From Escherichia phage a20: DNA of 64,000 nt. The DNA is taken from sequence record OQ067374.1; one strand, written 5' to 3'. Shown here piece by piece: positions 51,128 through 51,583 of the stretch. Position numbers and translations under genes: made by a program. A model generated the notes under the pieces. The model worked only from the letters and a program-made list of their open reading frames with translations. It was not told the origin of the DNA and searched no databases. The stretch's first letter is position 1. Each line of letters opens with the position of its first letter.

Positions 51128-51583
51128 TTATTTTAGATCTTCGGCCCAATCTAGTTTTAAGGGTTCTTTGTATTCACGGTCGAGAATAACCGGAATAGCT
51201 ACATCACCACTGAATGATAGTTGGCCAACGTTATATGATAACGTTATATGTGGAGTGTAGTCGTCGAAATCATGAGTAGCACCTAAAGCTCGTGCATACT
51301 GATGACGACATCTAAGATATTCGGAATCAAGAACTAAAACCAGTACAGCGCCGTCGTCAGTTTTCCATACCTCAAAGTGTCCTGATTCGGCAACAGAATA
51401 ACTACCACTAGATGTAGTATATGGTATGTTTACACGTGAATAACAAATTGTTGAATGAAGCTTTTCACGTGGTACTGGATTAGGAATTCTTAATTTGCGC
51501 TGGAGGTCTTCCAGCGCATCAAGTGTTAATTCCGAAAATTTAGCTGCGACGTAGAGGCCTTGTGAAAAGTCCTCAAATTTCAT
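51128..51583 (-). CDS. 57B: 2H-phosphoesterase-like protein, syntenic with T4 57B (Acb1 anti-CBASS nuclease)
   Basis: 151 aa; two H-x-T/S-x motifs (LHSTI and PHITL); sits directly downstream of 57A, as 57B does in T4. Confidence 0.6.

Follow-up and report, generated by a model that had tools for sequence, protein, structure and literature searches.

In the window, defined here as the whole analysed stretch of 64,000 nucleotides from Escherichia phage a20 (OQ067374.1), the ORF list placed exactly one uninterrupted ORF at 51128..51583 on the minus strand. This ORF, which begins with ATG and ends with a TAA stop codon, was identified as acb1 (gene 57B), and it encodes a 151-aa protein of the anti-CBASS 2H phosphoesterase family. 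The first-pass annotation, which named no strand, had proposed two H-x-T/S motifs in this protein, and direct reading of the sequence located both of them, each in the form H-x-T. The first catalytic motif, H43-S44-T45-I46 (T4 H44/T46), was found at 51446..51457 (minus strand) in the context KLH43-S-T45-ICYS, and the second, H112-I113-T114-L115 (T4 H113/T115), at 51239..51250 (minus strand) in the context TPH112-I-T114-LSYN. The C-terminal lid segment, LDWAEDLK (residues 144-151, encoded at 51131..51154 on the minus strand), includes W146, the counterpart of T4 W147, and aligns with residues 145-152 of the T4 protein.

The acb1 gene was observed to be included in a co-directional block of genes on the minus strand. 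The upstream member of this block is gene 1, located at 51818..52552 and encoding a dNMP kinase (Pfam DNMK PF21448, E=7.7e-97). The gene 57A, which encodes a tail-fibre assembly chaperone of 76 aa (Pfam GP57 PF17594, E=5.9e-23), is located at 51583..51813, directly upstream of acb1 and on the same strand, in agreement with the position beside 57A that had been noted earlier. The downstream neighbour of acb1 is ipI, located at 50764..51051 and encoding internal protein I (Pfam IPI_T4 PF11634, E=1e-49), which is 87.4% identical to IpI of T4. The order gene 1 – 57A – 57B – ipI – trna.4/.3/.2 – tRNAs is that of T4 (NC_000866) and of the annotated Mosigvirus phages, and the genes from gene 1 to trna.2 lie on the same strand as each other, as they do in T4 and in the Mosigvirus phage SA79RD. 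The adjacency of ipI and acb1 has been discussed previously as a small anti-defence cluster in T4, in which IpI is an inhibitor of the GmrSD restriction enzyme (PMC9117128).

Gene-context analysis further suggested how acb1 may be expressed. The TAA stop codon of 57A and the ATG start codon of acb1 overlap by one base (TAATG; junction GAAGAATAATGAAA), whereas the equivalent overlap at the 57A/57B junction of T4 is ATGA. Because acb1 shares one base with 57A and gene 1 lies only a short distance away, the three genes are probably transcribed together, with translational coupling between 57A and acb1. The annotation of SA79RD, which is 97.7% identical, places a middle promoter of T4 type upstream of gene 1. 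The intergenic region between acb1 and ipI (51080..51115, minus strand) contains a hairpin overlapping an early-promoter-like site. The hairpin, found by an inverted-repeat search, has an 8-bp stem (51080-51087 / 51099-51106), and the promoter-like site, recognised by consensus match only, runs from 51114 to 51086 and consists of GTTTACA, a 17-nt spacer and TACTAT with a TG extension. A terminator and a T4-type early promoter are annotated at the equivalent sites of SA79RD. Despite this annotation in a related record, we did not claim a terminator at 51080-51106 and treated it as unproven, because the hairpin lacks a T-run on the coding strand and the terminator scan called no intrinsic terminator after acb1. 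An Rfam scan of the whole window identified two tRNAs only, and no structured RNA at or near acb1.

The 5 kb around acb1 showed 97-98% DNA identity to the phages BEU50, vB_EcoM_SA79RD, NBG1, moskry and APCEc01. Since SA79RD has been assigned to Mosigvirus, with gene notes that cite RB69, this level of identity places the window in the known RB69-like Mosigvirus lineage. The acb1 genes of a20 and SA79RD differ at three nucleotides, which result in one conservative amino-acid change, V64I.

To identify the family of the encoded protein, we compared it with profile, structure and phage sequence collections. The complete Pfam profile PF23474 (1-144 of 144), named "Anti-CBASS protein Acb1", matched the protein with 197.3 bits and E=1.3e-58, against a cut-off of 27 bits for this family, a score far beyond chance. 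Among all PDB sequences, the best match was Acb1 of Erwinia phage FBB1 (7T26/7T27, E=1.1e-58), and the distant Acb1 entries 9Q2G and 9Q2Y ranked after it. The 86 relatives retrieved in one database search nearly all carried PF23474, which was present in every one of the full or partial relatives bearing a Pfam annotation (84/84); those that are named come from T4-like phages of enterobacteria, Erwinia, Acinetobacter, Proteus and Shewanella, and 'Anti-CBASS protein Acb1' is the name under which UniRef already lists the relatives. The protein also matched PHROG 755 (E=2.4e-65), a group labelled 'RNA ligase'.

Tblastn searches against 50,697 phage records found acb1 in 1,469 of them, and 137 records carried the protein at an identity of at least 99%. 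Proteins with 100% identity, already deposited in GenBank, were found in E. coli O157 typing phage 6 and in phage BEU50, and T4 and other members of Tequatrovirus encode proteins 85.4% identical to that of a20. A cluster of 167 members at 90% identity is represented by a protein of 152 aa (P0002) that is 85% identical to the a20 protein and is labelled 'hypothetical protein [Enterococcus faecalis]' at NCBI, where it lies on a 3-kb contig. As this is a coliphage-type gene under an Enterococcus faecalis label, the assignment is probably due to phage contamination or a misassigned contig.

The T4 protein encoded by gene 57B (NP_049750.1) was found by activity-guided fractionation as an enzyme cleaving 3'3'-cGAMP and was named Acb1 (Hobbs et al. 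2022, PMC9117128), so that the identity of 57B with Acb1 had been given correctly in the first-pass annotation. The match to T4 57B that had been proposed there was likewise upheld by the level of identity, the shared gene order and the Pfam match. Over the whole length, the a20 and T4 proteins differ by 22 substitutions, none of which affects a named functional residue, and the alignment contains no internal gaps. The T4 protein starts with MM, whereas the a20 protein starts at the second M and is one residue shorter at the N-terminus. The lineages also differ, a20 belonging to Mosigvirus and T4 to Tequatrovirus, and the neighbours gene 1, 57A and ipI are common to both.

As the structures of FBB1 Acb1 revealed, the enzyme adopts the 2H phosphoesterase fold, and H44, T46, H113 and T115 make up its HxT/HxT tetrad; the aromatic residues Y12, W74, F107 and W147 form stacks with the bases, adenine N6 is read by E141, and residues 145-152 constitute a C-terminal lid that shuts over the ligand (PMC9117128). 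When the a20 protein was aligned jointly with T4 57B and FBB1 Acb1, all nine named residues of T4 Acb1 (Y12, H44, T46, W74, F107, H113, T115, E141 and W147) were identical in the a20 protein at position n-1, namely Y11, H43, T45, W73, F106, H112, T114, E140 and W146. The catalytic tetrad, the stacking aromatics and the adenine-reading glutamate are therefore those of T4 Acb1, and within the lid the alignment showed LDWAEDLK in a20 versus LDWADDLK in T4. The FBB1 protein, which is 61-63% identical to that of a20, shares the HxT/HxT motifs and the lid; it has F and Y where a20 and T4 have W73 and F106, all of them aromatic, and a one-residue insertion after position 78 relative to the a20 protein. 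Across a family alignment of 61 sequences, which reached down to ~30% identity, H43, T45, H112 and T114 were invariant (61/61). Of these sequences, 60 retained Y11, 59 retained E140 and 57 retained W146, and positions 73 and 106 were aromatic in all but one (60/61).

The predicted structure of the a20 protein matched the same family. AlphaFold run on the single sequence gave an unusable model (pLDDT 37.2) and was replaced by a run on the 61-sequence alignment, which yielded a pLDDT of 89.9 and a pTM of 0.83. In this ligand-free model, low confidence was limited to residues 1-5 and the C-terminal lid, and the low pLDDT at the lid would fit a flexible lid. The top PDB match of the model in Foldseek was 7T26, the apo form of FBB1 Acb1 (E=2.7e-19, TM 0.87/0.96, rmsd 0.9 Å over 136 columns), followed by 7T27, the form with 3'3'-cGAMP (rmsd 1.7 Å). 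The model thus matched the compact 2H phosphoesterase fold of the solved Acb1 structures. The next match was the phosphodiesterase of Burkholderia phage BCSR5, an Acb1 (9Q2G, 9Q2Y) solved in open and closed lid states, which shares the family label and the fold. It is distant from the a20 protein, with a sequence match of E=0.007, a structural identity of 16-18% and a TM of 0.6-0.7, and its chain, at 165 aa, is longer.

At the level of the fold, with TM about 0.5 (about 0.45-0.55), Foldseek also matched E. coli LigT, coronavirus ns2, the rotavirus VP3 2',5'-phosphodiesterase and plant CPDase. These proteins have the 2H fold and the two HxT/S motifs in common with the a20 protein, but they share only 11-17% identity with it, act on other substrates and are larger. 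Both ns2 and VP3 destroy the host immune signal 2'-5' oligoadenylate, in parallel to Acb1. A further parallel is the poxvirus cGAMP PDE, which destroys cGAMP and whose lid is N-terminal, not C-terminal as in Acb1 (commentary PMC12064943).

Sequence, functional residues, fold and synteny together identify the a20 ORF at 51128..51583 as the orthologue of T4 57B/Acb1 in an RB69-like (Mosigvirus) coliphage. The gene has been described and the phage lineage sequenced before, and the finding adds no new biology.

What the a20 protein is expected to do follows from work on its relatives. T4 Acb1 and its homologues cleave adenosine-containing cyclic di- and trinucleotides in a metal-independent reaction, in which a cyclic phosphate is formed before the linear 3'-phosphate product, and rescue phages from CBASS; all nine further homologues tested were active, and the T4 H44A/H113A mutant was catalytically dead (PMC9117128). 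A search of the literature for an RB69 or Mosigvirus Acb1 whose activity had been tested yielded no such report. By orthology, the a20 ORF almost certainly encodes a Mosigvirus Acb1 enzyme with the T4-type mechanism, and on the same basis we infer the substrate range and the effect in infection of the a20 allele. According to this mechanism, the 151-aa enzyme would bind, independently of metals, cyclic di- and trinucleotides with at least one adenosine, such as 3'3'-cGAMP, cUA, cAAA and cAAG, in a U-shaped pocket that Y11, W73, F106 and W146 would line and in which E140 would read adenine N6. The C-terminal lid would shut over the bound cyclic nucleotide, and the H43/T45/H112/T114 tetrad would provide acid-base catalysis, with the adenosine 2'-OH attacking the 3'-5' bond to form a 2',3'-cyclic phosphate intermediate and then the linear 3'-phosphate product. 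Destruction of the signal would keep the CBASS effectors inactive, and the phage would escape abortive infection.

We considered whether the a20 protein might be a true Acb1 whose substrate range or main target has shifted relative to T4, for example one tuned against type III CRISPR cA3 or away from Panoptes decoys. The activity of Acb1 extends to cA3 and 2'3'-c-di-AMP and can set off Panoptes, from which phages escape via mutation of acb1 (PMC13577387, PMC12657230), so that the specificity of the enzyme is under selection; in one study, deletion of acb1 was without effect on a type I Panoptes system. The 22 aligned positions that differ from T4 Acb1 would leave room for such a shift. However, every residue reported to contact a base or phosphate is identical to that of T4 and the differences lie elsewhere, which makes a shifted range very unlikely. 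Selection also argued against it. The dN/dS of acb1 versus T4 was ~0.06 by the Nei-Gojobori method, a value that is approximate with synonymous sites near saturation (pS 0.70) and that reflects conservation, not diversification. Its direction is clear despite the approximation, and acb1 is intact and under strong purifying selection. A Mosigvirus allele with a measurably different substrate spectrum, such as lower activity on 2'3'-c-di-AMP or cA3, that avoids Panoptes detection and keeps its anti-CBASS activity is quite unlikely as well. If it did exist, its lower activity on these decoys would preserve the anti-CBASS function while avoiding detection by Panoptes guards.

A second alternative is that the protein does not degrade immune signals and is instead a LigT-like 2'-5' RNA ligase or 2',3'-cyclic phosphodiesterase with the ends of RNA or tRNA as its substrate. 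In its favour, PHROG 755, the RefSeq record of T4 and many phage records label 57B 'RNA ligase', and the tRNA cluster is close to acb1. In structure, Foldseek relates the protein distantly to E. coli LigT (E about 1e-4, TM about 0.5), and in sequence the protein gave a weak, partial match to Pfam 2_5_RNA_ligase2 (PF13563, E=0.013, 15.9 bits). The PF13563 score is below the 27-bit cut-off, however, and the likeness to LigT is at fold level only, with 13-17% identity and an rmsd of 7-8 Å as opposed to 0.9 Å to Acb1. Moreover, the T4 orthologue was isolated as a cGAMP-cleaving enzyme (PMC9117128), the residues stacking on the cyclic dinucleotide bases are conserved in the a20 protein, and the UniRef name of the relatives is that of Acb1. 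We rejected the 'RNA ligase' identity, which is highly improbable, on the basis of the LigT-family profile below threshold, the remote likeness of fold and the different activity demonstrated for the orthologue. The 'RNA ligase' label is inherited from the superfamily resemblance to LigT.

A decaying or inactive copy is conceivable, given that loss-of-function acb1 alleles occur naturally in T4-like phages, as in the natural nonsense mutant of Bas43 (PMC13577387, PMC12657230), but it is improbable in the extreme for a full-length intact frame with all catalytic residues, strongly purifying selection and identical or 99%-identical proteins in 137 phage records.

The labels in the databases vary widely for this gene. 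57B/Acb1 is widely mislabelled, as 'RNA ligase' in RefSeq T4 (NP_049750.1) and as 'hypothetical protein' in many GenBank phages, and among the records listed only one has 'cyclic phosphodiesterase' as its product name. With labels such as 'RNA ligase' and 'hypothetical protein', automated annotation will miss the anti-defence role of 57B.

Comparisons with T4 along the block further showed that acb1 is better conserved than the adjoining essential genes. The identity to T4 was 85.4% for acb1, and 64.0%, 59.5% and 65.9% for dNMP kinase, 57A and gp3, respectively. Within 50764..52552, the non-essential anti-defence genes acb1 (85%) and ipI (87%) both exceed their essential neighbours in identity to T4. 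The high conservation of acb1 and ipI may mean that the segment has been exchanged between genera in mosaic fashion, or that it is under unusually strong constraint.

Other genes with possible roles in counter-defence were also observed in the window. A homologue of the Acb2 sponge (T4 vs.4), of 81 aa, is encoded at 40478..40723 on the minus strand (Acb2_Tad1_hairpin, E=4.9e-18; PDB 7UQ2 'Vs.4', E=7.8e-30), and it shares 69% identity with T4 vs.4, in an alignment from which about eight positions are missing. Mechanical ORF calling gives a longer form of this gene with a TTG start (40478..40891), which is probably over-extended. Acb2 serves the same goal as Acb1, the removal of CBASS cyclic nucleotides, and is unrelated to it in sequence and fold; it is described as a sponge sequestering the signals, not as an enzyme (PMC10312549). 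The occurrence of acb1 and the Acb2 homologue in the same window indicates that a20 carries both T4-type anti-CBASS genes, and would thus have the pair of CBASS countermeasures of T4. A homologue of Tk.4 with a macro domain (Pfam Macro, E=2.2e-6) was found at 38388..38885 on the minus strand and is 84.5% identical to T4 Tk.4. Macro domains can reverse ADP-ribosylation, and the Tk.4 homologue may therefore be a further counter-defence candidate.

A standard T4-type anti-CBASS nuclease in an RB69-like phage is useful for genome annotation and for the prediction of host range. Such a phage would be predicted to plate well on CBASS hosts and to be possibly sensitive to Panoptes guards, which sense the action of Acb proteins.

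The region downstream of ipI differs from that of T4 in several respects. The trna.3 homologue (50144..50524, minus strand) is 43.6% identical to T4, as compared with 84.6% for trna.2 and 83.3% for trna.4, and this comparison indicates that trna.3 is a fast-evolving small gene adjoining the anti-defence cluster. The tRNA region at 49101..49257 (minus strand) contains two tRNA genes only, Arg-tct and Met-cat, whereas its T4 counterpart contains eight tRNAs as well as rnaC/rnaD and the homing endonuclease segB. An ORF of 171 aa (49337..49852, minus strand), located between the tRNAs and trna.2, belongs to PHROG 2290 and had no Pfam match. An ORF with a TTG start at 48738..49130 (minus strand) overlaps the tRNA-Arg gene (49101..49177); in the annotation of a related phage, the start of this gene is set farther downstream, and the longer version was probably produced by the mechanical calling of ORFs.
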